In this document: positions 1 through 19,879 of the stretch, one piece after another
Position numbering within the stretch: the first letter of the stretch is position 1
Layout of the letters: each line of letters opens with the position of its first letter
DNA from: Burkholderiales bacterium
GTDB lineage: Bacteria > Pseudomonadota > Gammaproteobacteria > Burkholderiales > JBEEJL01
Reading direction: 5' to 3'
Length of the DNA: 64,000 bases
Assembly: GCA_049695115.1 (NCBI GenBank)
Contig: JBAVRP010000030.1
Coordinates: forward strand, 905 to 64,904
Position numbers and translations under genes: made by a program
Notes under the pieces: generated by a model
Seen by the model: the letters and a program-made list of their open reading frames with translations, nothing else
The model's database searches: none
What the model was told of the DNA's origin: nothing

Positions 1-13
1 ATTAGCATTCAGC

Positions 14-150
14 ATCTATCGGCACGTATCGCGGACAATCGACAGCCTGTTGCATCTACCCCTTCAGGATCGGTCGGTATCTATCGGTACCTATCGCTGA
101 CAACGTTTTTCTCGCCATGCAAGCTTTCAGTATCTATCGAAGACTATCGC
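14..150. repeat. Three direct copies of a 19-bp iteron-like motif ATCTATCG-N5-TATCGC (14-32, 79-97, 132-150)
   Basis: Read directly: atctatcggcacgtatcgc, atctatcggtacctatcgc, atctatcgaagactatcgc. Copies 1 and 3 share the 5' flank TTCAG. Spacing is 65 and 53 bp. No convincing CDS lies underneath. Confidence 0.7.
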
Positions 151-455
151 TTGCGATGTTCTCCTACCCTCGCTGCACGCAGAAATCGACTCTCACAACA
201 CGACGCACTCGCCCATTTTCCCACGCGCAGAACTCCTTGTGTGCTCAACGATGCTGGCGGGCAGGCGTCGGACAACTCTTAATACAATCGGCCTGTCGGA
301 TCTTTGCTCCAAACCCGTCGTTCAAACATCGACTCTGAGGACTTGCAGTTCCGCCATGCGTGGCCCCCCGGATGCTCGAGGAGGCCTTCGAGGAAACCGG
401 CGCAGCGATGTATGAGCAGAATCGCGCATGCACGCTGCGGCCGGCCTGATCCAGC

Positions 456-800
456 TTATTTTTTCTTCTTTTTCTTTTTTTCCGGCAGCGCGCCAACGTA
501 ATTCATCGCGAGCGCAATCCAGCTCTTGATCTGGCGCGGATCGCACTGTGCCGGGTCCACGAACACAAACCCGGCCATCGGCTTGCCAGTGATGTCCATT
601 GGACTAGCGCCGGCGCGGGACAACGCCTCGGCGGCTTGATCCTTGCCGATCCGGAACATCAGACGCGCGCGATCAACTCCGCACAGCATATTGCCATTCA
701 GCATGAAGCAGATTCCTCCGAACATCTTTGTCTCCCCTATATTCCCGCAGTCACCAAGCGCGTGCCGGACGCGGAGCGCTAAGGCTTCGTCGTAAGCCAT
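456..800 (-). CDS. TfoX/Sxy N-terminal-domain family protein with poly-Lys C-terminus
   Basis: 114 aa. Core KMFGGICFMLNGNMLCG is typical of the TfoX_N domain. The protein ends PEKKKKKKK, encoded by a T/C-rich run at 459-482. Confidence 0.7.
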   Translation of the reverse strand: MAYDEALALRVRHALGDCGNIGETKMFGGICFMLNGNMLCGVDRARLMFRIGKDQAAEALSRAGASPMDITGKPMAGFVFVDPAQCDPRQIKSWIALAMNYVGALPEKKKKKKK

Positions 801-936
801 GTCGTCAAGCCTTGCGAAATGAGAAAGTCAGTGCGATGAACGGCCTGACGACAAGAGACTGAATCGCCGTGAATGCTGTCTCGATCTGCACGAAGGCAGC
901 CATTACATCCCCTTCCATGCGCGATTGGGCCGCTAG

Positions 937-1596
937 TCAGGCCGGCGCGGCGCCGGGGCGCCGGCCGGTTGCCTGCGGGTTGCTGGGTGCCGTCTTAGCC
1001 CAGTGCGGCACGGCCCGCATGCGCTCGTAATAGGCATTGATGTTTGGATACGGTGACCAGTCAAATGGAATGGACTCCTTGAAGCCCTCGGCATGGATGA
1101 CGGAATAGTCGGCCAACGTAATATCGTCCCCGACTAGGTACTTGCGACCCTTGAGGTGCGATTCGAGCGCGGGCGCGTGCCGCGCGAGTTCGCGCTTGGA
1201 CCAGGTCACAGTGGCTTCGTCCGGTGCCATATTCAGGAAACCGGGTTTCGCCACAGTTTCGAACGACAGTGCGCCGAACGCCTTGTTGAAGTGAGCCAGC
1301 TCCCAGCATTGCCAGCGCGAAATGTCTGCACGCTTTGCGTCGTCCTTCGGATACAGTGTGTTGGCCGGCGCCTTCGAAGCCAGGTACTGCATGATGGCGT
1401 TCGACTCCCACAGCACGAGGTCGCCGTCGCACAGCGTCGGCACCATTCCGTTGGGGTTCAGCGCGAGATACTCGGGTTTCTTCGTTTCGCCCGCGAAGAA
1501 GTCCAGATATTCGAATTCTGCGGTGATGCCGAGGTGGTTCAGTACCGCATGCACCTTGCGACAGTTGGGCGAACCAACGACGTAATAGAGTTTCAT
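937..1596 (-). CDS. glutathione S-transferase
   Basis: 219 aa. Thioredoxin-like N-domain (MKLYYVVGSPNCRKV, NPNGMVPTL, ESNAIMQYL) plus a helical C-domain. Confidence 0.85.
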   Translation of the reverse strand: MKLYYVVGSPNCRKVHAVLNHLGITAEFEYLDFFAGETKKPEYLALNPNGMVPTLCDGDLVLWESNAIMQYLASKAPANTLYPKDDAKRADISRWQCWELAHFNKAFGALSFETVAKPGFLNMAPDEATVTWSKRELARHAPALESHLKGRKYLVGDDITLADYSVIHAEGFKESIPFDWSPYPNINAYYERMRAVPHWAKTAPSNPQATGRRPGAAPA

Positions 1597-1626
1597 GGTG
1601 CTCCTCTTTGTTGGTTGATTGCGAAG

Positions 1627-1664
1627 TGCAAGCGATTATACGCAATTGCTTGCATTATGCAAGT
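1627..1664. promoter_or_regulatory. Candidate operator in the divergent GST/HxlR intergenic region (TGCAAGC..GCTTGCA-TTA-TGCAAGT)
   Basis: Inverted repeats TGCAAGC (1627-1633), GCTTGCA (1648-1654) and TGCAAGT (1658-1664) lie between divergent genes. Assignment as an HxlR operator is inference. Confidence 0.35.
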
Positions 1665-1684
1665 ATACAATCTAAGCTCGCAAT

Positions 1685-2509
1685 GTGAAAAGGAAATTGC
1701 CGCCGCGGCGCTCGGACTGTCCCATTACGTACGCCGTGGACTTCATCGGCGACAAGTGGACGCTTGTCGTTTTGCGTGACCTTATTATCCTGCGCAAGAG
1801 GCAGTTTCGCGACTTTCTCGCATCGGATGAGAAGATCGCCTCGAATATCCTTTCAAGCCGTCTGAAGCTGCTTGAAGCCGCGGGAATGGTTACCCGTCGT
1901 CGCGACCCTGAGCACGCCCGCCAGGTGATATACGAACCCACCGAAAAGGGGTTCGACCTGCTGCCTTTGATGCTTGAGATGGTGCGCTGGAGCGCCAAGT
2001 ACGATTCGCGCACGGCCGCACCCCCCGCCCTCGTCCGCCGCATAACTGAAAACCGCGATGCTTACATTGCGGAAATAAGATCATGGGAAAAGGGAGCGGG
2101 ACGCATGGCCACGAGCAGTTCTAAGACTCACATGACCGACAAAAAGCTACGAGCGTTCGTACGGGAGGTGACTGCGACGCTGCTAGAGGGCAAACCCCAC
2201 CGGACTCCCGGACTTGGCACATTTGCAACGTGTACTCGAAGAGCATCGGAAGGTCGAGCCACCTGCAAGATGGCTATGTTTCGGGCAAGCGCGGAGCTTC
2301 GCGAGTACGCCGCCGGCGGGCCGCCACCTGTCGTCTCCGGGCCTCACGCCGAGGCGGCGACCGTAATCATTGAGGCCATGCAAAGCGAAATGGGTGTTGA
2401 TGTGCTACTTCTTGGTCGCATGGCTGTGGTGCCGGTCCCTGGAAAGAAACCGAAGCTGATCTTTCATGGTGCCAAAGAACTCAATGACGTGCTCGCAGCC
2501 TCGTTATAG
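1685..2509 (+). CDS. HxlR-type winged-helix transcriptional regulator fused to a C-terminal HU/IHF-like region
   Basis: 274 aa with a GTG start. The N-terminal ~130 aa match HxlR (CPITYAVDFIGDKWTLVVLRDL, IASNILSSRLKLLEAAGMV). The C-terminal ~130 aa contain HU-like strand-arm signatures (PGLGTFATCTRRASEGR; LLLGRMAVVPVPGKKPKLIFHGAKELNDVL). Confidence 0.6.
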   Translation: MKRKLPPRRSDCPITYAVDFIGDKWTLVVLRDLIILRKRQFRDFLASDEKIASNILSSRLKLLEAAGMVTRRRDPEHARQVIYEPTEKGFDLLPLMLEMVRWSAKYDSRTAAPPALVRRITENRDAYIAEIRSWEKGAGRMATSSSKTHMTDKKLRAFVREVTATLLEGKPHRTPGLGTFATCTRRASEGRATCKMAMFRASAELREYAAGGPPPVVSGPHAEAATVIIEAMQSEMGVDVLLLGRMAVVPVPGKKPKLIFHGAKELNDVLAASL

Positions 2510-2551
2510 ATCAGATATTCGGTTCGATTGATCGCGCTACTGGCCCAGCCA

Positions 2552-2590
2552 TCGATAGGTGCCGATAGACCTCGATAGTCTTCGAAAGCC
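2552..2590. repeat. Two abutting inverted copies of the 14-150 iteron-like motif, 2 bp from the guaA stop
   Basis: The reverse complement of 2552-2570 is gtctatcggcacctatcga, 16/19 identical to copy 1. The reverse complement of 2572-2590 is ggctttcgaagactatcga, 15/19 identical to copy 3, including a 12-nt exact run cgaagactatcg. Confidence 0.65.
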
Positions 2591-2592
2591 CC

Positions 2593-4167
2593 CTACTCCC
2601 ACTCGATCGTCGCTGGCGGTTTCCCCGACACATCATAGACCACGCGATTAATGCCGCGCACTTCGTTGATGATGCGGTTGGAAGCTTTGCCGAGCAAAGT
2701 GTAGGGCAACTCGGCCCAATGGGCGGTCATGAAATCGCTGGTGACGACGGCGCGTAGCGCGATGACGTAATCGTAGGTGCGGCCGTCGCCCATGACGCCG
2801 ACCGATTTCACCGGCAAAAATACCGCGAACGCCTGCGAGGTTTTTTCATACCAACCTGCGTTGCGCAATTCTTCGATGAATATTGCGTCAGCACGGCGCA
2901 ATAAATCGGCGTATTCTTTTTTCACTTCACCGAGTATGCGCACGCCGAGCCCGGGGCCGGGGAACGGATGGCGATACACCATGTCGTGGTGCAGGCCCAG
3001 CGCGACGCCCAGTTCGCGCACTTCATCTTTGAAAAGTTCACGCAGCGGTTCGAGCAATTTCAGCTTCATCGTATCGGGCAAACCGCCGACATTGTGGTGC
3101 GATTTGATGGTGTGGGCTTTTTTGGTTTTCGCGCCGGCGGATTCGATCACGTCGGGGTAAATCGTCCCCTGCGCCAGCCATTTAGCATTGGGCAGTTTTT
3201 CCGATTCTCTCTGGAATACTTCAACAAATTCACGGCCGATGATTTTGCGTTTTTGTTCCGGATCGGTCACGCCGGCGAGGTGGCGCAAGAATTCATTGGT
3301 CGCATCAACGTGTATCACCTTCACGCCAAGATGGTCGGCGAAAGTCTGCATCACTTGTTCCGCCTCCTTCAATCTCAGCAGGCCGGTATCGACGAACACA
3401 CAGGTCAATTGCTTGCCGATGGCTTTGTGTATCAGCGCCGCGGCAACAGACGAATCGACGCCGCCGGATAAACCGAGTATCACTTCGTCATTGCCGACTT
3501 GCGAACGGATTTTACCGATGGCTTCATCGACGTAATCGGGCATATTCCAATCCGACGCAAGGCCGCAAATATCATGCACGAAGCGCGACAGAATCGCTTC
3601 GCCTTGCAAGGTATGCGTCACTTCGGGGTGAAATTGCAGTGCGTAAAATTTGCGCGCTTCGTCCGCCATGCCGGCGATGGGTGTGGCGGCGTTGGAAGCA
3701 ATGATTTTAAAACCCGGCGGAATCTGCGTCACTTTGTCGCCGTGGCTCATCCATACATCGAGCATGCCGAAACCTTCGGCGGTGCGGCGGTCTTCGATGT
3801 CGCGCAGTAATTCGCTGTGGCCGCGGGCACGGATTTCCGCGTAACCGAATTCGCGCACCAAGCCGTTTTCCACTGCGCCGCCCAATTGCGCCGCCATGGT
3901 TTGCATGCCGTAACAAATGCCCAGCACCGGCACACCGATTTCGAATACGGCTTGCGGCGCGCGCGGCGAAATATTTTCCGTCACGGAATTCGGGCTACCG
4001 GAAAGAATAATTCCCAGCGGCGCAAAATCACGGACGAATTGATCGCTGACGTCATAAGGATGCAATTCGCAATACACTCCGCATTCGCGCACGCGCCGTG
4101 CGATTAATTGCGCGTATTGCGAGCCAAAATCAAGGATGAGGATTTTCTTATGGTTCATGCCGTTCAA
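2593..4167 (-). CDS. guaA: GMP synthase (glutamine-hydrolysing)
   Basis: 524 aa. GATase domain ([28 protein letters not shown]), ATP-PPase P-loop SGGVDSSV, and the canonical C-terminus PPATIEWE. Confidence 0.97.
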
Positions 4168-4169
4168 TA

Positions 4170-4202
4170 GAAAAAATTAAGGGCGGTTAAAAGGCCGCCC
4201 TT
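4170..4202 (-). terminator. Hairpin plus T-tract between guaB and guaA (possible attenuator/terminator)
   Basis: The minus strand reads AAGGGCGG-ccttttaa-CCGCCCTT followed by AATTTTTTC. Confidence 0.5.
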
Positions 4203-4223
4203 ATTGGCTACAAAAAATTCATA

Positions 4224-5729
<1,506 letters not shown>

Positions 5730-5954
5730 TTACCGCAAATCGCTGAAAATCCATGATTTTTGGTTAAATTTGTGATGCATCCCATTGACTTATGAGGGAA
5801 TTATGTTAAGGTTCAACGTGTATTTTTATGCCCGGTCAACCAGCAAATGTTTGGAGAGTTGCTTGTGCAGATGCGGCTTACCCCTCAAAATCACTGACTA
5901 TTCTGATGAAAACGAGCCGTATCGGATTTTCAACTCATCCAAGAGGCAATATTC

Positions 5955-6437
5955 ATGCATAAATCCCTTATTCTGATTGCGCAGACTTTCATCTTTATAG
6001 CTCTACCCGTTGCTGTTTCTGCGGATATTTTCCAATGGAAAGACGATGACGGAAAAACCCAGTATTCCGACCAGCCTCCGTCGGACCGGCCAGCGCGTCT
6101 GGTAAAGACGGGTGTGACGGCCCCAACCGTTGCCGAAAAATCGGAGACTGCCTCCGAGGAGAAAACTGAGAAAAAAGGCCCGAAAAGCCTGGAAGAAAAA
6201 GCCCAGGAATCGCGCAAGCGCAAAATCGAAACCGAAAAAGCCGAGAGGGAAGCGGTGGGGAAAACAGCGGAAAAAAAAGCCAGCTGTACCCAGGCACGCG
6301 ACCAGATGAAGACGCTTGAAGAAGGCGGGCGCATTTATAAGCGGGATGAAAAAGGCGAGAAGAATTATCTGGACGACAAAGCTTTGGTCAAGGAAATGTC
6401 CGATGCCAAGGCCAATGTCAGCAAATATTGTAGTTAG
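5955..6437 (+). CDS. DUF4124-domain secreted protein
   Basis: 160 aa. Signal peptide followed by ADIFQWKDDDGKTQYSDQPP, the DUF4124 signature. Charged Lys/Glu-rich middle region. Confidence 0.75.
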   Translation: MHKSLILIAQTFIFIALPVAVSADIFQWKDDDGKTQYSDQPPSDRPARLVKTGVTAPTVAEKSETASEEKTEKKGPKSLEEKAQESRKRKIETEKAEREAVGKTAEKKASCTQARDQMKTLEEGGRIYKRDEKGEKNYLDDKALVKEMSDAKANVSKYCS

Positions 6438-6474
6438 TTGAATTGTTAAAAATTTAATAAAATCAAATAGTTAT

Positions 6475-8541
6475 ATGGACATGGCTCCTATGGCAACACA
6501 TGCGAAGGTTCTGCTGAGTTTGGTGTTCGCCTTGGGGGCTAACAGTGCATTTGCGCTTGGCTTGGGCGAAATCGATCTGCGCTCTTATCTAGGGCAGCCT
6601 CTTGACGCCAGGATCCCGGTCTTGGCTGGCGCAGACGAGCCGCTGGACGACAGTTGTTTCAAACTGGTCAATGGCGCCGTAACCAGCGACACCGGCCATT
6701 CAACGCCGGCGAAATTGTCGTTCCAGCAGGTCGGACGCAATAATATTCTACAAATTCGCACTGCCGCTTTCGTGCCGGAGCCGGCGGTGCGTATCCAGAT
6801 TGAAATCAGTTGCGGCAATGTGAGCCGGATTTCCCGCGAATACACTTTACTGCTGGATCCGCCGGAATACGCCGCTTCACGCATAGACCTGCCGTCGAAA
6901 CCGGTCGCGTCTGGCCAGCAAGCCACGACGATGACACAGCCTCAGTCCATCATTCAGGACGCGTCGAGCGGTGCGTCTGCGCAAATTTCCGCCGATGCCG
7001 GGCTTGCTCCTATTTATGGCGTGAACTCGACTGCGTCCGTGACATCAGCTGCCGGCCAAAGCGTTACTCCGCGTAAAATACGCAAAGCGCCGACTGAAAC
7101 TTCTGCTCCTGTCGCCAAAGCGCCGGCACGCATTAGGCCGCGCCCTTCCGCGCCAATACCACGGCCCGCGTATAAACCTTCTGCGGAAATAACGGCCCCG
7201 GTTGAAAAAACGCCTGCGCCCGCTGCTGTTGCGTCGATTGCAAAAGAAGCGCCCGGCGATGGCTTCCGTCTCAAATTGTCGTCGACAGAAATGAATCTCG
7301 CGCTGACAAAAACCGTTACCGAATCAGATCGCCAGCGTTTGCGGGCGCGGCAACTGCTGCTGGAAAATCAGTCCGACGACCAGACCGCAACCATACTGTC
7401 GATGAAAAACAGCATTGCGGAAATGGAAAAGCAATTGGCCGAGTTGCGCAGACAAATGGCGGCACAAAAAGGCGCCCCTGTGGGCAATGTAGTCGGCATG
7501 CCCGATTTGGCCGTTGCCGCGCCGGGTACGACGACGCCACCTGTCCCGACGGGAGCAGCGCCCGCCATTGAGCCTGCAAAATCCGCTGCAATCTCAATTC
7601 CCATTGCCAAACCTTTGCCGGCCAAACAAGAGCCCGGATTCTCCCTCGCCGATTGGACCAAGCCTGCTCTGGCTGCAAGTCTCGGTGCGTTGCTGCTCAT
7701 TTTCGGCGTCAATTACTGGCGTAACCGTGGTAGCAAGGAAACCGCTTACAAGGATTTATATGCTGATAGCACAAACAAGTTAAAAGCGCCGGTACCGGCG
7801 GTCGGGCAATTTGACGAAAACAAATTATTTGAAGACGGCCAAGATGACGATGACCTGGAAGAAATTCTGCTTCCCGAAGATGCCCAGGAAAATGCCAAAA
7901 CCAAGGCTCTCGATTTGCCCGTATCTGCTACGACCTTAAGCGACCCGCGCTACATGATCGATGTGCAGGCACCCGACTCATTCAAATTGGCTTACTTGCG
8001 CGAGCGCTTCCCGGAAATCGCGCAAGGTAGCTTGCGCCTGGACAAACCCGATTCACTGATACACGCCGCCCGCCTGTATTATCAAGAAGATAATAATTCG
8101 GCCAAGGCGGCGGAATTACTGGAATACGCTATTGGCGAATATCCCAACGAAGTCCGCCCCTGGCTGGCGGTGTTCGAAATTTACCGTCTGGAAAACCGTA
8201 CGGCTGATTTCGCTAATCTGGCGCAACGATTCAAACCAAAATTCGAACATGGTGGCTATTGGCCCAAAGTTCAGGCCATTGGCCGCCAGATCGATCCGCA
8301 AAATCCGCTGTATATCGCCGAAGAATTTCATGGGGATGAAAATGGTGATACCGCGATTTCGGCGGAGGCTGAAAACTGGCTTAACACCCCGCTTGATTTC
8401 ACCCAGGACTTGCTGGGCAATGAACTGCGCGACGCCCTCTTAAGTGGAGACGGCTCACCCTCCGCGGCCGGTGCTCCCGCTCAACACACTTTGAAACCGG
8501 GCGAATTGTCATTGTCGCCCGAAGGCAAAAAGCCGGTTTGA
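6475..8541 (+). CDS. FimV-like peptidoglycan-binding/pilus-assembly scaffold protein
   Basis: 688 aa. N-terminal FimV motif LGLGEIDLRSYLGQPLDARIPV, a Pro/Ala-rich linker, a coiled coil, one TM segment, an acidic tract and a C-terminal TPR-like FimV motif (AAELLEYAIGEYPNEVRPWLAVFEIY). Confidence 0.8.
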   Translation: MDMAPMATHAKVLLSLVFALGANSAFALGLGEIDLRSYLGQPLDARIPVLAGADEPLDDSCFKLVNGAVTSDTGHSTPAKLSFQQVGRNNILQIRTAAFVPEPAVRIQIEISCGNVSRISREYTLLLDPPEYAASRIDLPSKPVASGQQATTMTQPQSIIQDASSGASAQISADAGLAPIYGVNSTASVTSAAGQSVTPRKIRKAPTETSAPVAKAPARIRPRPSAPIPRPAYKPSAEITAPVEKTPAPAAVASIAKEAPGDGFRLKLSSTEMNLALTKTVTESDRQRLRARQLLLENQSDDQTATILSMKNSIAEMEKQLAELRRQMAAQKGAPVGNVVGMPDLAVAAPGTTTPPVPTGAAPAIEPAKSAAISIPIAKPLPAKQEPGFSLADWTKPALAASLGALLLIFGVNYWRNRGSKETAYKDLYADSTNKLKAPVPAVGQFDENKLFEDGQDDDDLEEILLPEDAQENAKTKALDLPVSATTLSDPRYMIDVQAPDSFKLAYLRERFPEIAQGSLRLDKPDSLIHAARLYYQEDNNSAKAAELLEYAIGEYPNEVRPWLAVFEIYRLENRTADFANLAQRFKPKFEHGGYWPKVQAIGRQIDPQNPLYIAEEFHGDENGDTAISAEAENWLNTPLDFTQDLLGNELRDALLSGDGSPSAAGAPAQHTLKPGELSLSPEGKKPV

Positions 8542-8548
8542 TCCTTTC

Positions 8549-10204
8549 ATGAATGCTTCACCTACTTCGTCTCTTCCGAGCGACCCGGTCGCCGCCCTCG
8601 CCCCTGTCAGCCTGTGGGTGGCCCGCCTAGGCAGTCTCGATGGTCCCAATGCACGCATCACCCTGCTGCAAGCTCTGCGTTCACTCAACCGTGGCAATCT
8701 CGCGCCCGATATTCTCACTACGCTGATGCAATTGGATGAGCAATGTCAATCCATTTTGGATAAGGCCGAGGCACGAATGAAAACCAGCGGCCACGACATC
8801 ATGGCGGAAAGTGCCCTGAGCCGCGACATGCAAAACATCTATCAGGAATTCGCCAACGCATACAAACGATTCATTGATGATTATCTCACCCAATCCGCCG
8901 ACAGCACTGCGGTGCCAGAGCGAATCAAGGAAATCACCGCCCGCAGCATTCACTGTCATTGCGGTATCGCAAGCTGGACCTTTTTCCTGAGCGAAGCCTT
9001 GCCGGAATCGTTCTGGCGGCAACTGCATTCTCTCTATTTGTTTGCCGAGCAGAACGCGTTCGAAACCAAAACACTGGCCTGGTACGACGGGTATCCCACC
9101 AGCGTCTCCAACGTTTACATGCGTACGCTGTTTCTCGACATGTTCAATACCGGCAATCTCACGCCGCAGCAGATTTCCATAGCCGACAAACGCCTGCAAG
9201 ATTGGTGCGGTGAGATGAGGCTGGAACGCGACTATGTCAATGGCAAACATCAACACTATGTCAACACGGCCGAACCCTCCGGCTTGCACAAAATTTCCGG
9301 CATTGAGCCGTTGCAAATGCCAAGCATGCGCTATCTGGATACGGGAAGGCTCGGCACCCATATCGCCCACGCAAAAATGGCCATCCGCGACGGCAACCCG
9401 GATACCAGCCTTGGATTTAACCTCAGCGAATTCCCGGTAGGCGAATATATTGATCTGCTGGATAAATTGGCGCGCGTTTGTCCGCCGCCAGGCGGCGAAG
9501 GCGCGCAGCGCCTGCACGACCGGGCACGCTCCAAAGCATTGTCGGTGGAATTGAAGTTCGGCATGGACCAGGTGATGGATGCCATTCGCAACCGCTCGAC
9601 GAATCCTTTCAGCAATATGAAAGCAGAGCATCTCACTCTCGACAGAAATGAAGAAGCTGATATCAAAATGTTCGGCTTTGTCACTGATCGCACGCGCCTG
9701 ACGAAAATCGATACAGCCGCGGCTCTTTCCACCGAGACCAGCTCGCCCTTCAGGCTGCACGACCACAGCATAACCGGCTTTGGCGTAACTACAGACAAAA
9801 ACACGTCCCATACGGTAGCGCTCGGCGCCATCGTCGCCATCAGGACCACGGGCGACCCGCAGTGGAAAGTGAGCATGGTAGTGCGCAAAGTCCCCCACAC
9901 CGACGATCATGTGTTAATAGGCATTGAACTCATATCGTCCACGCCCATCCCCGTCACGCTGGAGGTTTACGATCCGGATTTTCCCGTCGATCAATCGGAT
10001 AAATCAGTTGACGCCCTGTTTCTCCCCGCCCAACCCGGCAAAGCGGATAGCCTGTTGATCCGTACCGGACAATATTCATCCAACACGCGGCATAAACTTA
10101 TCACCAACAAAGGTGCTTTCATCATTCGCCTGAACCGCGTGATCAAACAAGGCAGCCATTGGGTGGCGGCGGGGCTTGAGGTAGTGTCGAAGCTGCAATC
10201 TTAA
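8549..10204 (+). CDS. hypothetical protein, possible degenerate PilZ-like C-terminal domain
   Basis: 551 aa, 8 bp downstream of the FimV-like gene. The C-terminal region contains DHSITG, which matches the (D/N)xSxxG half of the PilZ motif. No clean RxxxR is seen upstream. Confidence 0.5.
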   Translation: MNASPTSSLPSDPVAALAPVSLWVARLGSLDGPNARITLLQALRSLNRGNLAPDILTTLMQLDEQCQSILDKAEARMKTSGHDIMAESALSRDMQNIYQEFANAYKRFIDDYLTQSADSTAVPERIKEITARSIHCHCGIASWTFFLSEALPESFWRQLHSLYLFAEQNAFETKTLAWYDGYPTSVSNVYMRTLFLDMFNTGNLTPQQISIADKRLQDWCGEMRLERDYVNGKHQHYVNTAEPSGLHKISGIEPLQMPSMRYLDTGRLGTHIAHAKMAIRDGNPDTSLGFNLSEFPVGEYIDLLDKLARVCPPPGGEGAQRLHDRARSKALSVELKFGMDQVMDAIRNRSTNPFSNMKAEHLTLDRNEEADIKMFGFVTDRTRLTKIDTAAALSTETSSPFRLHDHSITGFGVTTDKNTSHTVALGAIVAIRTTGDPQWKVSMVVRKVPHTDDHVLIGIELISSTPIPVTLEVYDPDFPVDQSDKSVDALFLPAQPGKADSLLIRTGQYSSNTRHKLITNKGAFIIRLNRVIKQGSHWVAAGLEVVSKLQS

Positions 10205-10501
10205 TCAGGGCTGCCTGCGTTTTTTTGCTGAGACCCTCGTGCGACGCGCTTCTTTCGGGTCGGCAATTAGCGCCCGATAAATTTCCACCCTGTCGCCCTC
10301 ACGCAATCCTGTATCCAGGCTCGTAAGCTTGCCGAAAATACCTACGCGATTTTTGCGCAAATCTATTTCCGGAAATTCGTCCAACAACTTTGAAGCTATT
10401 ATCGCTTCGGCGACTGCCGATCCAGGCCTGAGTTGTACGTGCGCGATGATCTGTTTTTCCGGCAATGCATAACAGACTTCGATATTGATTACAGTGGTCA
10501 T
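10205..10501 (-). CDS. rnfH: RnfH family ubiquitin-fold protein (UPF0125)
   Basis: 98 aa (INIEVCYALPEKQ..., GDRVEIYRALIADPKEARR). ATGA overlap with the upstream ratA. Confidence 0.85.
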   Translation of the reverse strand: MTTVINIEVCYALPEKQIIAHVQLRPGSAVAEAIIASKLLDEFPEIDLRKNRVGIFGKLTSLDTGLREGDRVEIYRALIADPKEARRTRVSAKKRRQP

Positions 10502-10941
10502 GTGTCCACCGAACCCTGCAGTTCGTCGGCACGCTGCAAAAACGCTTCGACAAAAGTATTCGCTATGTAATGGAACACCGGTCCAAATAATTTCTCCAGC
10601 AAGCGATTCGAAAACTCATATTCAAGATCAAATTCAATCCGGCACGCTTCGGCAGACAGCGGCTTGAAATGCCAATGCCCCACCATGTGTTTGAACGGCC
10701 CGCTCTCCAACTCGATGTGCATCCACTCGTGCCCCACTTTGCGGTTGCGCGTAGCGAAGCTCTGCTTAATGCCGTGATAATCGATTTTAATCACGGCATG
10801 GGTCATCTCGTCGTTGCGGCCGACAACCTCGGTGCCGCCGCACCAGGGCAGGAATTCCGGATATTTTTCCACCGCATCCACTAGCCGAAACATGGTCTCC
10901 GCCGGGTGGGATACGAGCATGGATTTTTTTACTTGTGCCAT
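10498..10941 (-). CDS. ratA: SRPBCC-fold ribosome-association toxin RatA/YfjG family protein
   Basis: 147 aa (VEKYPEFLPWC...). Sits in the conserved smpB-divergent ratA-rnfH arrangement. Confidence 0.85.
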   Translation of the reverse strand: MAQVKKSMLVSHPAETMFRLVDAVEKYPEFLPWCGGTEVVGRNDEMTHAVIKIDYHGIKQSFATRNRKVGHEWMHIELESGPFKHMVGHWHFKPLSAEACRIEFDLEYEFSNRLLEKLFGPVFHYIANTFVEAFLQRADELQGSVDT

Positions 10942-11482: not shown

Positions 11483-11601
11483 ATTTAATCAATTAGTTAA
11501 AATAATTATTGTATGGCAATAAAACCCGGCAGTGCGGGCATATACTAATTCCCGTCCACTCGTTACGATAACGCGATCATTCATCAAAAGGCGTTCCTGT
11601 C

Positions 11602-12360
11602 ATGAAATATCTCGATATGTTCAAACTCGATAACAAAGTGGCTTTCGTCACCGGCGGGTCGCGCGGACTGGGGCTGGAGATTGCCGAAGCCTTGCGCGAA
11701 GCGGGCGCGAAGGTCGCGCTTATGGCGCGGCGCGAAGCGTATTTCGCCGAAGCGCTCGAATCAATTCCCGACGCACTGTGCATCATTGGCGATGTGTCGT
11801 CGGAAGACGACGTGAAGCGCGCGGTGGCAGAGTGCGAAGCCAACCTCGGTGCGGTGGATATCCTGGTCAACGCTGCAGGTATTTCGTGGGGCGCGCCGGC
11901 GGTTGAGATGCCGGCGGAAAAATTCCGCCAGGTCATGCAGGTGAATGTCGACGGCTCGTTTTACGCAGCCAAAGCCGTCGCGCCGGGCATGATCAAAAAG
12001 GGCTACGGAAAAATCATCAACATCGCGTCGGTCGCCGGTATCAAAGGCGAACCGGCTGATGTGCTCGATGCAGTCGGTTACAGCAGCAGCAAAGCCGCGG
12101 TCATCGGCATGACGCGCGATCTCGCCAACAAATGGGGCAAGCACGGCATACGTGTCAACGCCATCGCGCCGGGATTTTTTCCGACCAAGATGACGGAAAA
12201 AGTCATCCCGCGAATCACGGAGCGATTACAGGAACACAACCCGCTCAAGCGCGCCGGCAAGCCGGGTGAATTGGGCGGCGCGGGATTATTTCTCGCCAGC
12301 GCGGCGTCCGATTATGTCAACGGCCACACGCTGGTCGTCGATGGCGGCGGAGTCGCCTGA
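11602..12360 (+). CDS. SDR family oxidoreductase
   Basis: 252 aa. TGGSRGLG Rossmann motif and the YSSSK catalytic motif. Confidence 0.85.
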   Translation: MKYLDMFKLDNKVAFVTGGSRGLGLEIAEALREAGAKVALMARREAYFAEALESIPDALCIIGDVSSEDDVKRAVAECEANLGAVDILVNAAGISWGAPAVEMPAEKFRQVMQVNVDGSFYAAKAVAPGMIKKGYGKIINIASVAGIKGEPADVLDAVGYSSSKAAVIGMTRDLANKWGKHGIRVNAIAPGFFPTKMTEKVIPRITERLQEHNPLKRAGKPGELGGAGLFLASAASDYVNGHTLVVDGGGVA

Positions 12361-13427
12361 TGCACGAGCAATTCATCGGGACCATGGCGGTGCACGATAA
12401 GCACCGCTTCGACATCGCCGCGCTGGAAAAATATTTGCGCAGCCATGTCGAAAGTTACAATGGCCCGCTGACGGTCGAGCAATTCAAAGGCGGCCAATCG
12501 AATCCCACTTTCAAGCTCATCACGCCGCAAAAAAAATATGTCATGCGCGCCAAGCCGGGACCAGCGGCGAAGTTATTGCCGTCTGCGCACGCGGTAGACC
12601 GCGAATACCGTGTGCTCACGGCTCTTTATGGCAGCGACGTGCCGGTGCCGAAAACCTGGGCTCTGTGTGAAGACGAAAACATCATCGGTCGCGCGTTTTA
12701 CATCATGGATTGCATCGACGGCCGCGTGTTGTGGGATCCCACCCTGCCCGGCTTTTCAAATAGCGAACGTAGTACGGTATATGACGAAATGAACCGCGTC
12801 ATCGCCGCACTGCATAAAGCCGATTACGCCAGAATCGGCTTGGCCGATTACGGCAAACCGGGCAATTATTTCGCCCGCCAGATTGCGCGTTGGAGCAAAC
12901 AATATAAAGCGTCGGAAACGGAAAAAATCGAAGCGATGGACAAGCTCATCGAATGGCTGCCGCAGAATATTCCGACCGACGAGGAGTCGAGCATTGTTCA
13001 CGGCGATTACCGCCTCGACAATATGATCTTCCATCCGACCGAGCCGAAAATCCTGGCGATTCTCGACTGGGAACTTTCCACGCTCGGCCACCCGTTAGCG
13101 GATTTTTCCTATCACTGCATGACCTGGAATCTTTCCGCCGAAGAATTTCGCGGCATGGCGGGCGTCGATTTAACCAGCCTCGGCATTCCCACGCAGGACG
13201 AATACGTCGCCATGTATTGCCGGCGCACCGGTCGCAGCAAAATCGACAACTGGGATTTTTACATGGCGTACAACATGTTCCGCCTCGCCGGCATTCTGCA
13301 AGGGATCATGGGCCGCGTCGTCGATGGCACGGCGGCGAGTTTGCAAGCCGCCGAATCGGGCAAGCGCGCACGCCCGATGGCCGAAGCCGGGTGGCGCCAA
13401 GTAGAAAAAATACTGTTGCAAAAGTAG
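12360..13427 (+). CDS. phosphotransferase (APH/ACAD10-11 N-terminal kinase-like) family protein
   Basis: 355 aa. HGDYRLDNMIF Brenner motif and ILDWELSTLGHP. TGATG overlap with the upstream SDR; an acyl-CoA dehydrogenase follows. Confidence 0.85.
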   Translation: MHEQFIGTMAVHDKHRFDIAALEKYLRSHVESYNGPLTVEQFKGGQSNPTFKLITPQKKYVMRAKPGPAAKLLPSAHAVDREYRVLTALYGSDVPVPKTWALCEDENIIGRAFYIMDCIDGRVLWDPTLPGFSNSERSTVYDEMNRVIAALHKADYARIGLADYGKPGNYFARQIARWSKQYKASETEKIEAMDKLIEWLPQNIPTDEESSIVHGDYRLDNMIFHPTEPKILAILDWELSTLGHPLADFSYHCMTWNLSAEEFRGMAGVDLTSLGIPTQDEYVAMYCRRTGRSKIDNWDFYMAYNMFRLAGILQGIMGRVVDGTAASLQAAESGKRARPMAEAGWRQVEKILLQK

Positions 13428-13472
13428 TTGTAACTATTTGTTTTAATTTAATAATTAATTAACGGAGCTAAA

Positions 13473-14675
13473 ATGGATTTCGCCTACTCGCCAAAAGTTA
13501 AAGACCTGCAATCGCGTCTCAATGGATTCATGGAAAAAAATATTTATCCGAACGAACAGCTGTTCCACGATCAGGTAGCGCAAGGCGATCGCTGGCAACC
13601 GACGGAAATTATCGAAGAATTGAAAACCAAAGCGCGCGCTGAAGGATTGTGGAATTTATTTTTACCTGAATCGCCGCGCGGCGCTGGCCTGACCAATCTG
13701 GAATACGCGCCGTTGTGCGAAATAATGGGCCGCTCGCCAATTGGGCCGGAAGCATTCAACTGCTCTGCCCCGGACACCGGCAACATGGAAACCATCGAGC
13801 GTTACGGCAACGACGAACATAAAAAGCAATGGCTCGCGCCCCTGCTCGAAGGCAAAATCCGTTCTGCGTTTTGCATGACCGAGCCGGCCGTCGCCTCAAG
13901 TGATGCGACCAATATCGAAAGCAGCATCGCGCGCGACGGCAACGATTACGTCATCAACGGCACCAAATGGTGGAGCTCGGGCGCGGGCGACCCGCGCTGC
14001 AAGATTCTTATCTTCATGGGCAAAACCAACCCCGAAGCGCCGCGCCACTCGCAGCAATCGATGGTGTTGGTGCCGATGGACGCCAAGGGCATCCACGTCA
14101 AACGCTTCCTGCCCGTGTTCGGCTACGACGACGCGCCGCATGGCCACATGGAAATCGATTTCAAAAATGTGCGCGTGCCGGTAACCAATATTCTGCTCGG
14201 CGAAGGCCGCGGATTTGAAATTGCCCAAGGCCGCTTAGGCCCCGGACGCATACACCACTGCATGCGCTTAATCGGCCTCGCAGAGCGCGCGCTGGAGAAA
14301 ATGTGCCGCCGCGCCAAAACCCGCGTTGCTTTCGGCAAACCTGTGTCGGAGCAAGGCGTCACACTCGAGCGCATCGCCGAATCGCGTATCCTCATCGACC
14401 AGGCGCGCTGGCTCACGCTGAACGCCGCCTACATGATGGACACCGCAGGTAACAAATTCGCCAAAGCCGAAATCGCCATGATCAAAGTCGCCGCGCCCAA
14501 CATGGCGCTGCAGGTTATCGACTGGGCCATGCAAGTCCACGGCGCAGCCGGTGTCTGCGACGACTTCGGCCTCGCCCAAGCCTACGCACATGCACGCACA
14601 CTACGCCTGGCCGACGGCCCGGATGAAGTGCATCGCAATGCGATTGCGAAATTGGAGTTGGGGAAATATCTATAA
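13473..14675 (+). CDS. acyl-CoA dehydrogenase
   Basis: 400 aa. [23 protein letters not shown]-terminal [10 protein letters not shown]. Confidence 0.9.
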
Positions 14676-14681
14676 ATAAAA

Positions 14682-14762
14682 TGTAGCCTGGATGGAGCGT
14701 AGCGGAATCCGGGTTTCGTTGATTCATATTCCCAGGACTGCGCGAAGCTTCATCCGGCTACA
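14682..14762. repeat. MITE/REP-like palindromic element (TGTAGCCTGGATG ... CATCCGGCTACA)
   Basis: The terminal inverted repeats were read directly. A half copy recurs at about 35405-35436. Confidence 0.7.
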
Positions 14763-14798
14763 GTTGATATTGATTAAAATCTTCAATGGAGTTCGATA

Positions 14799-15320
14799 AT
14801 GCAAATTGATTGGGCGGTAGTAGCCGCAACACTTTTAGGACCGATCTTCGCCGTTTGGGCTTCCGAATGGAGGCAGGCTCGGCGTGCTAAGCATGAGCGT
14901 AAGGAATGGGTATTCCGCACTCTGATGAGTACTCGTGCAGCGAGACTTCGTATTGAGCATGTTTCCGCAATAAACCAAATCGACTTTGCCTTTCCTCGTA
15001 AATCCTGTGCAGATGTTCAAGATGCATGGGGTTTATACCGGCAGCAATTGAGACATCCTGACGCATTTTCAGAAGATAATGCTGTGAATAAAGCATGGCA
15101 AACAAAAGCAAACGAATTGCTTGCCAAACTATTACATAAAATGGCAATAGATTTGAAGATTCCATTTTCAGAAACTGAGATAACAGATAACTCTTATTAC
15201 CCTGACGCATATGTGAATGACGAACTTATGAACCAGGAAACAAAACATTTAGTCCTCCAAGTTCTCAGAGATGGACGGCCTATCAACATCAGGCCAATTG
15301 TTGATGGCAAGCAACCTTAA
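14799..15320 (+). CDS. hypothetical protein with N-terminal TM helix (orphan, AT-rich)
   Basis: 173 aa. N-terminus VVAATLLGPIFAVWASEW. No recognisable catalytic motif. Visibly AT-rich codon usage compared with its neighbours. Confidence 0.55.
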   Translation: MQIDWAVVAATLLGPIFAVWASEWRQARRAKHERKEWVFRTLMSTRAARLRIEHVSAINQIDFAFPRKSCADVQDAWGLYRQQLRHPDAFSEDNAVNKAWQTKANELLAKLLHKMAIDLKIPFSETEITDNSYYPDAYVNDELMNQETKHLVLQVLRDGRPINIRPIVDGKQP

Positions 15321-15398
15321 GAAGCGCAAGTTTTAAGGAGGGCAAAGAGCAGCTTGCCCACGCTACAAAAATTATTCTACTGACGAGCCAAACAAAGT

Positions 15399-15430
15399 AA
15401 AAACGGACTTCCTTGGAAGTCCGTTTTTTT
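15399..15430. terminator. Bidirectional rho-independent terminator
   Basis: AAAA-ACGGACTTC-cttg-GAAGTCCGT-TTTTTT, between convergent genes ending at 15320 (+) and 15455 (-). Confidence 0.85.
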
Positions 15431-15454
15431 GAATCGCCATCACGTATTCAATCA

Positions 15455-18400
15455 TCAATGCAACTTACGCCTGCGCAACTGTATCAACGCGCCCCCCGCT
15501 AATAATAGCAACATTGGATCAAACGGTGCATCACTACCAGCCAAGACACAACCTCCTCCACCACCTCCGCTAGACGAAGGCACAGGTGTCGGCGCAGGGG
15601 TGGGTGTTGGCGTTGGCGTTGGTGTTGGCGTTGGTGTTGGCGTTGGTGTTGGTGTTGGTGTTGGTGTTGGTGTTGGTGTTGGTGTTGGTGTTGGCGTTGG
15701 CGTTGGCGTTGGTGTTGGCGTTGGTGTCGGCGCAACAGTTGAAACTCCGCTCAAAGCTATTTGAACTGTTATTGGCTTTCCATCCGTCGTAATGGTCAAA
15801 ATACCAGACTGCGTTCCTAATGTAGTCGGCAAGAATGTTACATTGAAAGTCGCAGATGATCCGCGCGGAATCAGGCCGTTGGTCAAATTAGTTCTGAAAG
15901 CCTGTGCATTATCGATACTCAAACTGGTAATGGAGACATCGCTATTACCTGTATTGGATAAATTAAACTGAAGGGCTTTGCTACTCGATTGCACTACAGA
16001 GCCAAAATCAATTTGGGTAACATTTGGTGAAATGTTCCCAGTAAGTACGCGCGCACCTGCACGATGCATAATGGCTGCTGTTGCCGCATTCGGATTGAGT
16101 TCAATCGCCGTCGTACTGGTTGGGGCACCTGTTGTAGCGACTGGAATGCGGTAAGCTTTCCTACCTTTAGTAGCGTCCGGCGCAATAAGCGTTATGAAGT
16201 CATCATTACCCCAAAAGCTCGGGAGGCTACCGGTGTTCAACCCATTGCTTCCAAGATTAAACACACGATGAGGTGTTTGGTGCTCTAAGTCAAAAGAATA
16301 GACAGAATAATTTACATTGGCAGGGTCTCGAAAGTCATTGACGTCAAACGCAATGACGTTTCGGTTATTGGTCGCAAAGACTGGGTTGCCGATATCAAGT
16401 CCTGGGTCTTGGCTAGGGATCAAATATTGCAATTGACGCGTCAAAATATCTGATCGGCCGATGGTCCAATAACGGTAACCGCCACTTGTTGGCGTGCAAG
16501 CATTACTGGGTAACGATATGCAATTGAGGGCATCGAAAATGATATAGCGGCCAGCGTAATCAAAATTCAGCGAGTCAGCAAACAGTACTGTGTTCTGCGC
16601 AGCCGCTCCGCTCTGGTAGTTTTCCGATGTCAAGGTAATATCAAAATTACTTGCCCCCGAAGCATCGCTCAAATCCAGAACATGGATATGATTATCCGTA
16701 ACGCTAGTAGTAGTAAAAGCGAAATAACGAAAGTCTGGCGATATAGCGATACTGTTATATGCCCCAGTCGTTGTTATGGTATTTCTGCTAATGAGATTGA
16801 ATGTAGCAGGGTCAAACTCCGTCACTTGTATATTCCCAGCAGTATCAAGATACAAAATATCAGTCAACGTCTGGTTACTTGCGTTTTTATACGATATGAC
16901 TGCAGGTCGCTTATGTGCCACATTGAGAGCCACCGAGTTAGCAGGGCCTCTAGTATTTGTCGCGTCGTAACCTGCAAACGGCACCGCCATTTTTTGAACA
17001 TAGATGTCATACGATTCTGAAGAGGGTACAAACGGGATGATTGGTTTGGTCAGGTACACCATCAAGTCGCTACCGGCGGCAGAATCTGTTGATGTTGGCG
17101 TAGATGGTGGGTTGATATTGTCCGTAACTTCCACCAAGTCCCACGCCTTGGCCACAGCCACTTCGTCGCCAGGAAATAAATCTTTTGCTGCTTGAATCGT
17201 TGCGCGGCGCGCGTCAATGAATTGCGACGATTGCACAAGATAGGTCGTCAGAGCGCGGTAGTAAATTTTTTCGGTATGCGCGCGACCAATGCTTGTGCCG
17301 AGGCCTTCTGCAGTAAGCCCTTCTGCAATCAAATACGCTGCGCGATTCGGTATGCCACTATTGACGTGTACCCCACCATTATCTCCTGCTTTTGTCTGAG
17401 GCAATCGTTGATAATCACTCATTTTCGTCGGCTGCGGATCTTGACTAAGCCCAGGATTTGCCAAACTACGAAGGTAAAAAGGCGCTTTTTTTACGCAGCC
17501 GTCGCCAACTGTCCACTTTCTACCGTCCACAATGGCACCAAATACGTCAGCGAATGATTCGTTTAATGCCCCGCTCTGATTTTGGTAAATCAAACCTGCA
17601 GAATTCTGTATGACGCCATGAGTCATCTCATGGGCGGCCACGTCGAGACACGCAGCTAAATTGCTAAATGTTGTACCTCCGTCTCCATAAAACATATTTG
17701 TACCATCCCAATATGCCTGGTCTAGATTTTGTCCAACATGGATTACCGCTTGCAGCGTTCCATTTTTGTCATCAATACTATTTCTGCCGTGCGTATTTTT
17801 ATAGTAGTCATAGACTCTTCTCGTGTTATATGCGGCACTAACAGCCGCAGGATCCCATATGTTAAGTGAACTAGTAATCACGAAGTTAACTGGATCTAGA
17901 GTATTCCCCGCAGTCTCGATAAATGTATCGCTACGCGGATTGCCCGCTATCAACGAAGCAACCGGATCGTAGTTCACACCATCGGCAGCAGCACTTGGAG
18001 TAGTCGGATCAATCAAGTAGAACCCTCCATTGGCTGACCAAGCGGTAAAGCTGCGCTGCACTCCATTCAAATCGGTGCCACTTGCAGTTACTACTGCACT
18101 TTGAATATTATCAATGCGATCAATTACCTTGCCGGTTTTGGCATCGACAAAATGAATCCAGTTTTGGTTTAACGCGGGCTTGGTCACTACTTTATACGCC
18201 AACGTCATCGCACCCTTCTCGGCGGTATGGATGACTAATTCGCTAACGGGTGCTGGCATTTTATTCACGCCCAAACCGAGATCTTTGAACACGGCGCTCT
18301 GCGCGGCATCAATCGTAATACTGGGGCGAGTTTCGATTGCGCTCGGTGTCGGTTCGTGACGGCCTTGCAGCAAGGTGACTTCGCGTTGGCCGTCCATGTG

Positions 18401-19099
18401 TACCAGCAACTCTTTGCCGAATAACGGAATGCCCTTATAGGTTTGCTGAAAACGCAAATGGGTGTGGCCGTTGGCTTCAATATTTTCGCGCGTGAGTTTT
18501 ACTTCGGCACTGGGGTCGTCCATTTTCAACAGCGCGCGATTATCAGCGAGGAATTTTTTGGCCAGCGTGTGCGCGGTCTCCTTTTGTACAACAACTTCTT
18601 TTTTCGCTACAGAACTTTTAGGCAGCGAGAGATGGGAGATCGTGCCATTACGCTGGTCAAAATGCGCTTCGACTCCGCCGCTTGCTTGATGGGCGTTGTT
18701 CAGTGCGCGAACTTGCGCGTGTTGCTCGGCGTTGACGTGCGAAGCTGCGGCAGTAACTGTCGGCGCGGAGACAGTTTGTGTGCGCGTATATAACTCCCGC
18801 AATTTGCCGCCCAGATTATCCGCCTGCCGCAAAGATTCGACATGTGCGCGAGGCGCAACACGATTGGCTTTTTGTTGCCACCCAGTTTCGCGTGTAGAGC
18901 GGTATTTTGTCATTTCCGATAATTTCGCCGCATGTTGTTCAGCGGTTAACGAAAAACTTTTCTGTCGATTCGGTTGCGGCGTATCCGTTGCAGAAAATCC
19001 CGCGAGAAAAACTACTGAAGTAATCACTGCACCATTAAGTAATATTTTTGATTTGCGCGACTTATTCATTTCGTTCTCTCTCCGACTATTGAGTTTCAC
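15455..19099 (-). CDS. M4 (thermolysin-like) zinc metallopeptidase with FTP/PepSY propeptide, C-terminal propeller-like region, choice-of-anchor-D-like Ig domain, (TP)n linker and C-terminal sorting signal
   Basis: 1214 aa. Signal/TM segment at the N-terminus. FTP motif [20 protein letters not shown] as AAHEMTHGV, with the third zinc ligand in GALNESFAD. Tail reads [40 protein letters not shown]. Confidence 0.9.
15584..15733. repeat. Hexanucleotide tandem repeat (GGYGTT)n encoding the (TP)n linker of the M4 protease
   Basis: More than 20 near-identical tandem 6-bp units were read directly. They generate the artefactual (GV)n, (HQ)n and (LV)n ORFs in the other frames of the track. Confidence 0.9.
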
Positions 19100-19104
19100 A
19101 AGAT

Positions 19105-19719
19105 TTAATTTTGGCTGGGCGACGCTGAAATCTGATTCAACACCAAACCCGTTTCTGCATCAACAAACACCATGGTTCGACGCAAACTCTTCATAATGGT
19201 GATCATATGTACCAGACGTGGCGCGCCATCATGCATATAAACGTATAACTGGCTGTCCTGCGCTTTCCCACCTTCTCCCACCGCACTTGCCGCAGTATTA
19301 ATAGCGATGGTCTTAGCCAATTTCGGTTCGACCGAAATTTTTTGCGTGATTGGTTGAATACTGCCGGTGGTTGATGTCGCTACATTGTCAGCATTCAAAT
19401 GAACGAGGAGGAGTTGCCCCCACACCGGCACACCGTAATAACTCTGTTGAAAGCGAATGTGCTTTTGCCGCAAGTCATCGACGCGCTCACTTAAAAACGT
19501 CAATTCCTTGCAAGGATCGGTGACGCGATGCGCACCTGGGTTTGCTTTTAGATACGCTAGTGCTTGGCCTAAGTATTTAGCTTGATCCGGCTGTTGCGAA
19601 GTTTTGGCAGCGCAGAGATTGTCGGCGAGCAGGATAGAGTTGTCGGTGACACAGGCGGTTAAGATGGGCAACACAAACAACAGCGCAGGTCTGCGCCGAC
19701 GCGATTTTGATTTTTGCAT
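19105..19719 (-). CDS. lipoprotein consisting of a free-standing FTP + PepSY (M4 propeptide-like) module
   Basis: 204 aa. Lipobox LTAC after a basic signal peptide. [23 protein letters not shown] is paralogous to the protease FTP motif, and a PepSY-like C-terminus is present ([14 protein letters not shown]). Its stop is 5 bp upstream of the protease start. Confidence 0.75.
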
Positions 19720-19853
19720 TTTTATCCTCCCTTGTTTTTCAGTAGCTTATAGGACTTCTTCGCCTTCTGTAATAAGGATTGTGTAAATCTTAGCCAAATC
19801 AAATCCGGCAAAAAAACATAAGTATTTGATTATACTTAATAAATTATAATCCC

Positions 19854-19875: not shown

Positions 19876-19879
19876 ATTT

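Follow-up and report, generated by a model that had tools for sequence, protein, structure and literature searches.

The element closest to the one that we discuss here is GIsul2, an island whose insertion site is the core GAGTGGGA in the 3' end of guaA, and whose excision and integration have been shown experimentally to depend on its integrase, Int (PMC9376610). The same integrase also excises and integrates the CR2-sul2 unit, which is integrase-less; the paper neither uses the term arm-type nor describes such sites (PMC9376610). Two broader classes are relevant as well. The cis-mobilizable elements (CIMEs) are defined as having kept both attachment (att) sites, attL and attR, and having lost the genes for integration and transfer (PMC5704250). 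The PIMEs (Pseudomonadota integrative mobilizable elements) are presented, in the part of the preprint available, as a large family with int and alpA that uses the attB site by guaA, and GIsul2 as a partial relative of it (bioRxiv 10.64898/2026.01.12.698999). The locus of this work lies in a window of 64,000 nt (the whole stretch of DNA analysed, positions 905 to 64,904 of contig JBAVRP010000030.1, assembly GCA_049695115.1, from a Burkholderiales bacterium). At its left end a module of three genes stands between two sets of short repeats, one of which almost touches the stop codon of guaA, the gene for GMP synthase. A first-pass annotation, made from the letters of the DNA, saw in these repeats the end architecture of a Tn7-like transposon. 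We believe that the module is very probably something else: a genomic islet of about 2.7 kb, integrase-less and flanked by att sites, which was placed in the 3' end of guaA by a P4-type tyrosine integrase of the GIsul2 family.

On this reading a suspected Tn7-like element becomes a decayed island without an integrase, at a site, guaA, that is well known for integration. The gain is modest. It consists of an att-arm map for one branch of GIsul2-type integrases, in which two classes of motif keep fixed distances and change together with the integrase subfamily, and of several Betaproteobacteria found to have integrase-less guaA islets bearing defence or toxin-antitoxin cargo. There is also a lesson for annotation: where paired repeat sets stand by a conserved gene, one should look for a duplicated end of that gene before calling a transposon.

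The duplicated guaA end

The argument begins outside the window. The TfoX protein of the module is also encoded on contigs of the metagenome-assembled genome GCA_049693875.1 from NCBI (contig JBAVQH010000084.1, hereafter L001; other loci are named in the same way) and of two Logan assemblies. L001 is base for base the same as window positions 1-10800 and reaches 877 nt further left than base 1. In this extension the repeats run on past the window, in the form of a GACGGTAGA-N3-GACGGTAGA pair 21-41 nt left of base 1 (L001 10821-10841), and a second copy of the guaA 3' end, ATTGAGTGGGAATGA, is found 100-114 nt left of base 1 (L001 10900-10914). The genuine end of guaA (...IEWE-stop) reads GACGATCGAGTGGGAGTAG and the second copy reads GTTGATGATTGAGTGGGAATGA. 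The two copies, ATCGAGTGGGAGTAG in guaA (L001 8194) and ATTGAGTGGGAATGA (L001 10900), are 2706 nt apart, and both contain the 8-bp core GAGTGGGA, which in the second copy occupies L001 10903-10910. The guaA loci that we used for comparison were taken from 80 betaproteobacterial species, the best guaA protein match among them being 84% identical. By a hand calculation these loci, 1.2 Mb together, should contain the degenerate 15-nt pattern of the guaA end about 0.03 times by chance, and it recurs downstream of guaA in 5 of the 80 relatives.

Because of this second copy left of base 1, we read the module as a discrete islet of about 2.7 kb between direct repeats of the guaA end, with its left boundary outside the window. 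The TAG stop of guaA stands on the island side of GAGTGGGA and appears to be supplied by the island; the original stop, TGA, presumably sits with the distal repeat. The first-pass annotation had remarked that the 3' end of guaA is a known integration site of islands, and this is correct. Among its alternatives was the right end of a larger element whose left part lies beyond base 1. This is refuted, as the distal core is reached some 100 nt past base 1 and is succeeded by a flank of lower GC content (45.9%) that has no further att-arm motifs. The alternative of a non-autonomous or decayed element is the one that agrees with our results.

The flank beyond the second copy holds a gene like those for outer membrane proteins (L001 11059-11597, 259-797 nt left of base 1), and neither an integrase nor a transposase. 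The gene looks split, with a short open reading frame (ORF) that has a signal peptide, followed in another frame by a beta-barrel-like ORF of 112 aa, which may point to a frameshift or a pseudogene. By blastn and tblastx, the 760 nt past the distal core had no match in the 80 relatives. The contigs of three independent assemblies stop within about 70 nt of one another (L001 ~11607-11677), which suggests a repeat just beyond.

Attachment arms and the integrases beside them

The five 19-mers reported in the first pass are all present at the positions it gave. The three on the left are exact matches to ATCTATCG-N5-TATCGC, and the last one on the right ends at 2590, 2 nt from the guaA stop, which is CTA on the plus strand at 2593-2595. 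The underlying repeat unit is the hexamer CTATCG with a phasing of 10 bp. On the left side it forms three hexamer pairs at 16-31, 81-96 and 134-149. On the guaA side the positions had been given correctly, but the two abutting 19-mers are really four phased hexamers, CGATAG at 2553, 2563 and 2573 and CGAAAG at 2583. Unit c of the left side (Table 1) is a 27-nt imperfect inverted repeat of 2563-2589, to which it is 74% complementary. The CTATCG repeats are real and far above chance level. With up to one mismatch, CTATCG-N5-TATCG matches six times in the 64 kb, every time inside the two clusters; 0.84 matches are expected, and six were reached in none of 100 shuffles. The full 19-mer with up to three mismatches is not enriched across the window (10 matches against 6.1 expected), and its three exact matches and one match with two mismatches all lie within the clusters.

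The same hexamers occur beside guaA elsewhere, and there they stand next to an integrase gene. Pairs of the form CTATCG-N4-CTATCG come directly after the guaA stop in four of the 80 species (L020, L046, L061 and L063), and in the last three of these GACGGTA pairs follow. The next ORF in L046 and L061 begins MLTDTALRNLK or MLSDATLRNIKP; in L046 it encodes Arm-DNA-bind_3 and Phage_int_M, domains of a P4-type tyrosine integrase. When metagenomes were scanned with this L046 protein, 80 loci came back at 84-100% identity. The guaA-end core is found 243-317 nt upstream of the int ATG in 72 of these (315 or 316 nt in 64), and in the 72 the motifs keep fixed distances from the core, with CTATCG pairs at +33 (59 loci) and again at +96 (60 loci) and [AG]CGGTA pairs at +132 (59 loci). 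The hexamers are kept and the spacers changed in L061, L063 and L012, which are more distant loci with an integrase and whose Int is about 71% identical where measurable. The full-length Int of L099 (418 aa) shares 58.7% identity with that of GIsul2 on the A. baumannii plasmid pAB3. The cargo of the intact L099 island consists of Dcm methylase, Z1 and DUF4420, and no alpA, rep or mob gene in it is recognizable by Pfam. In L020 (7507-7700) the guaA stop is followed by three phased CTATCG hexamers, then by GACGGTATC pairs and a ATCAACGAGC motif resembling the attR of L025; both an integrase and a second core are lacking, and the locus may be a relic that is reduced still further.

From 73 sites the attL consensus is CCTTCG-N4-CTATCG-N4-(C)TATCG, that is GTCCTTCGGGGACTATCG-N4-(C)TATCG, and the window cluster at 2553..2588 stands at the same distance from the core. 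We take the guaA-side array to be the first motif cluster of a canonical attL. The integrase itself is absent. The first pass had found no transposase between the repeat sets, and we can add that neither a transposase nor an integrase is among the genes there; tblastn with Int against the window and L001 gave no match at E<6. A similar tblastn with the TniQ and Mu-type transposase proteins of pAB3 against the window and its extension gave nothing at E<=1, with limited sensitivity for remote families.

The left-hand repeats have their counterpart at the far ends of other guaA islands. A pair of ACGGTA lies at -78 or -79 from the core in L001, L025, L121 (twice), L009, L104, L139 and L159. GTTGATGAT comes directly before GAGTGGGA in L001, L121 (twice), L104 and L159 (where the core reads GAATGGGA), and looser variants of it precede the core in L060 and L139. 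The triple hexamer of unit c recurs, as an inverted CGATAG-N4-CGATAG-N4-CGAAAG some 161 nt ahead of the distal core, once in L025 and twice in L121. The attR of GIsul2 in pAB3 has a CATGGTAT pair 77 nt ahead of the core (the pAB3 att regions examined were L170 16700-17000 and 33250-33340). L001 has both the ACGGTA pair at -78 and the GTTGATGAT signature, as the distal ends of the other islands do, and its CTATCG units come before them; unit a of the window is L001 10769-10787, about 130 nt ahead of the distal core. Because the other guaA islands share this far-end architecture, we assign the left-hand repeats to the distal att arm. Beyond the motifs the arms align over short distances only, about 100 nt with L121 and, by blastn, the first 64 nt or so of the window arm with the canonical attL, and on this ground we regard the islet copy as a divergent variant.

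The motif sets differ by integrase subfamily within one common layout next to guaA. Subfamily A, the L046 type with which the islet is grouped and to which the L099 island belongs, has CTATCG pairs and GACGGTA. The GIsul2-like subfamily B (L043, L080, L026 and L056) has CTGGCA-N4-CTGGCA pairs and (C)ATGGTAT or GGGTAT, and subfamily C (L058 and L050) has GACGGTA alone. Such co-variation is what would be expected of binding sites for cognate proteins. By a hand count, the beta-sheet segment of the arm domain is identical at 28 of 37 positions between A and C and at 21 of 37 between A and B, and A and C have GACGGTA in common. There is a weak hint here that GACGGTA might be the arm site of Int and CTATCG the site of another factor. 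The GIsul2-like attL regions also have a terminator-like hairpin between the two CTGGCA pairs (in L043, aagcccatgtatgcatgggcttttt); nothing obviously equivalent follows guaA in the islet.

Heterobivalent tyrosine integrases of the lambda/P4 type place their catalytic domains on core sites and their N-terminal domain on arm-type sites in both arms, and they are assisted by bending or excision factors. The history of the islet would then run as follows. A circular island would have recombined with guaA inside the 8-bp core GAGTGGGA, within the last guaA codons. The island would have given guaA a new end with a TAG stop, and the displaced host end (...GAGTGGGAATGA, TGA) would have come to lie across the island, some 100 nt left of base 1. 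The CTATCG arrays are putative protein-binding sites in the two att arms, attL or P' beside guaA and attR or P beside the distal core, with the P arm made up of three inverted CTATCG pairs and the GACGGTAGA pair. In intact relatives such arm sites would bring into the recombination complex the integrase, bound through its N-terminal domain for arm sites, and/or an accessory or excision factor. The islet might later have lost int and the inner part of its attL arm, or it might have arisen as an integrase-less unit. By itself it would be immobile, and at best it would be excised or carried by the cognate integrase of an island landing in tandem. The model predicts ...CCAGCGACGATCGAGTGGGAATGAGCGCTTGGTTTCGG... 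for the empty attB junction, ...GGTGCCGTTGATGATTGAGTGGGAGTAGGGGGCTTTCGAAGACTATCG... for the circular attP junction, and, for the uninterrupted locus, the guaA stop followed by ...ATGAGCGCTTGGTTTCGG and the outer-membrane-protein gene.

Several observations weigh against this account and should be considered together. The distal core is outside the window and is known from identical contigs of other assemblies, and outside the shared 8 bp the 15-nt repeats have 4 mismatches between them. Since no close relative with an empty site was found, the evidence for the boundaries is the duplicated core together with the comparison with other islands. The arms are also not quite those of the relatives. 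Where others have a single inverted set at -161, L001 has three inverted CTATCG pairs, at -248, -195 and -130, and the proximal arm keeps only the first cluster, the CTATCG pair at +96 and the GACGGTA pair at +132 both missing. An intact element with int, three distal pairs and four proximal hexamers was not found. Finally, because subfamily C is without the CTATCG motif class, these hexamers may be sites of an accessory or excision factor rather than of the Int arm domain.

Table 1. Features of the guaA locus and of integrase-less islets in other species. Positions are those of the window unless the feature names another locus.
Feature	Position	Strand	Remarks
Distal (attR-side) arm unit a	14..32	+	CTATCG (16-21) and GTATCG (26-31), opposite in orientation to the guaA-side array
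19-mer copy 1	14-32		ATCTATCGGCACGTATCGC
Distal arm unit b	79..97	+	CTATCG-N4-CTATCG pair
19-mer copy 2	79-97		ATCTATCGGTACCTATCGC
Distal arm unit c	123..150	+	GCTTTCA-N4-CTATCG-N4-CTATCG
19-mer copy 3	132-150		ATCTATCGAAGACTATCGC
TfoX_N-domain protein, 114 aa, poly-Lys C-terminus	456..800	-	Pfam PF04993, E=4e-14
Glutathione S-transferase (GST), 219 aa	937..1596	-	Pfam GST_N and GST_C
Conserved palindromes TTGCGAAGTGCAAG and CTTGCATTATGCAAG	1619..1663	.	Divergent GST/HxlR promoter region
HxlR regulator with weakly HU-like C-terminal domain, 274 aa	1685..2509	+	Pfam HxlR, E=4e-15
19-mer copy 4	2552-2570	reverse complement	GTCTATCGGCACCTATCGA; 16/19 to copy 1
guaA-proximal (attL-side) arm	2553..2588	-	In guaA direction: CTTTCG-N4-CTATCG-N4-CTATCG-N4-CTATCG
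19-mer copy 5	2572-2590	reverse complement	GGCTTTCGAAGACTATCGA; 15/19 to copy 3
att core region, guaA 3' end ATCGAGTGGGAGTAG	2593..2607	-	8-bp core GAGTGGGA at 2597-2604
guaA (GMP synthase), target gene	2593..4158	-	Pfam GMP_synt_C and GATase
L060 islet	11560-12736		1.2 kb; TacA/T-type toxin-antitoxin pair
L009 islet	11560-15550		4 kb; AbiE
L052 islet	5841-9974		4.1 kb; resolvase and XamI restriction-modification system
L025 islet	11590-19883		8.3 kb; Wadjet and TumE

Cargo genes and rival explanations

The alternative that survives best shares the origin proposed above and differs about the present. It holds that the islet, though non-autonomous, still works as a mobile unit, which a cognate integrase excises and integrates in trans. 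We regard this as possible and somewhat doubtful. Both cores are kept, and so are the complete distal arm and the first cluster of the proximal arm. Integrase-less, att-flanked units occur at guaA in at least five other species, and in L121 they form a tandem array. GIsul2 Int moves an integrase-less unit, CR2-sul2, that is flanked by att sites of 19 bp (PMC9376610), so that mobilization of the islet in trans may be possible by analogy. On the other side stand the two motif pairs that the proximal arm lacks and the absence of the cognate integrase from the 64 kb by tblastn with Int. In an exact look-up of the guaA protein, every contig returned also carries the islet, and no circular or empty-site form was seen.

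A wider idea, which we hold still more tentatively, is that the guaA attB site of Betaproteobacteria may be an accretion site for small integrase-less units, which the integrases of GIsul2 and PIMEs would exchange in trans much like cassettes, with the CTATCG arrays kept for recognition as dedicated accessory-factor sites. The cargo of such units would range from toxin-antitoxin pairs, restriction-modification systems and Wadjet to the redox/stress module of the islet. Four other integrase-less guaA islets (L060, L009, L052 and L025) have the same guaA-end repeat at both boundaries. L121 (1-10001) has integrase-less units in tandem, with attR-type cores at 3455 and 9685, followed by attL and an island with int. 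In L104, L139 and L159 an attR-type arm is immediately upstream of the core that precedes int.

The remaining alternatives turn on the three genes of the module. The first-pass calls of TfoX-like, GST and HxlR proteins were right, and its HU half matches below the Pfam cut-off; the C-terminal half of the HxlR protein reaches E=0.007 and 17 bits with PF00216, below the cut-off of 22.4 bits, and one homologue (P0071) clears it with 25.8 bits. The HxlR::HU-like fusion is present in only 3 of 127 homologues (P0001-P0003), the two halves usually being separate proteins of about 155 aa each, and a divergent HxlR and GST pair is a common chromosomal unit elsewhere (L005-L007). We considered whether the HU-like domain could be an architectural factor encoded by the island, and rejected this on the contexts of its homologues: a stand-alone HU-like homologue (L004) has ordinary metabolic genes as neighbours, an HxlR-only homologue (L005-L007) is in the ordinary chromosomal HxlR-GST setting, and the arrays are not adjacent to the fusion homologues (L088 and L089). 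The enclosed genes had been said to look richer in GC than the core genes, and this was a good observation, positions 1-2592 having 57.2% GC against 53.0% in the remaining window; other windows of 2592 nt in the 64 kb reach at most 56.7%, with a mean of 53.1%. Elsewhere, 15001-20000 and 63001-64000 have a GC fraction of 0.44-0.48 against the window mean of about 0.53, and may be of foreign origin too. The TfoX_N protein ends in seven lysines (EKKKKKKK); its coding tract at 456-485 is A/T-rich with short homopolymer runs and could slip.

The first pass had also proposed that the arrays are operators for the encoded regulator. In its general form this alternative takes them as operators for the HxlR::HU-like protein or another host regulator, and the duplicated guaA end as incidental. 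The array does lie 44 nt past the 3' end of the regulator gene, and an HU-like domain could in principle bind phased sites. We nevertheless think it most improbable. The TfoX-GST-HxlR::HU module (fusion 82% and 91% identical) is found on other contigs with different flanks and no guaA, and there are no CTATCG arrays in the 50-190 nt of those flanks that are readable. Conversely, the arrays stand beside guaA in genomes that have an integrase in place of the regulator. The GST/HxlR promoter region has a different palindrome of its own, whose columns are invariant in 4 homologous modules, one from a distant genome included. These palindromes are likely the HxlR operator, part of the cargo rather than recombination sites.

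Tn7 makes a 5-bp target duplication, has terminal inverted repeats of the form TGT...ACA, and inserts downstream of the coding sequence of its target and outside it. The islet resembles Tn7-family ends in having several short inverted repeats, set apart at one end and crowded at the other, beside the 3' end of a conserved and essential gene, but this likeness is superficial and unspecific. A non-autonomous or decayed Tn7-like transposon, with TnsB-type sites for repeats and TnsD/TniQ-type targeting to guaA, is the least credible of the readings. No Tns genes were found, the repeat sets enclosing TfoX_N, GST and HxlR only. The packed array stops 2 nt short of the stop codon, with the junction inside the last guaA codons. 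What flanks the element is a 15-nt repeat of the end of guaA, with GAGTGGGA, and not a 5-bp duplication, and TGT...ACA termini were not seen. In about 60 loci the same motifs precede a gene for a tyrosine integrase at set distances.

Comparison with known systems

We return to the islet as a product of a GIsul2-family integrase and ask how it stands to the described elements. The CR2-sul2 unit is like the islet in being integrase-less and bounded by GAGTGGGA-type att sites. It differs in its place and contents, as it is inside GIsul2, carries ISCR2 and sul2, and has the 19-bp att sites only, whereas the islet is directly at guaA and has arm motifs on both sides. The CIMEs offer a parallel of another kind. 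Like them, the islet has kept both cores and lacks genes for integration and transfer, and tandem accretion with an int-bearing island, in the manner of CIMEs, is seen in its relative L121. Unlike them, it has a complete distal arm and only a partial proximal one, so attL is partly kept, and its mobilization in cis is hypothetical. The CIMEs related to ICESt1 of Streptococcus thermophilus also belong to another integrase family and another phylum. From the PIMEs, as described in the part of the preprint available, the islet differs in that their core genes int and alpA are absent from it.

GIsul2 remains the closest comparison. It is an island or integrative mobilizable element of 15 kb, known from Shigella and from the Acinetobacter plasmid pAB3, and like the islet it sits in the 3' end of guaA with GAGTGGGA at both ends and a motif pair 77-78 nt before the distal core. 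The Int beside CTATCG arrays in the islet's relatives is, as given above, more than half identical to its integrase. The differences are just as clear. The islet is 2.7 kb long, its arms have CTATCG and GACGGTA where GIsul2-like arms have CTGGCA/TGGCAC and ATGGTAT, and it has no int, rep or tra and no sul2/ISCR2; the accessory mobility genes alpA, repA/C, trb and resG, present in the GIsul2 of pAB3, are absent from it. In its site, its core and its arm architecture the islet agrees with the GIsul2 type, and in lacking an adjacent integrase and the gene content it does not. We believe it is best regarded as a derivative of that type rather than as an autonomous member.

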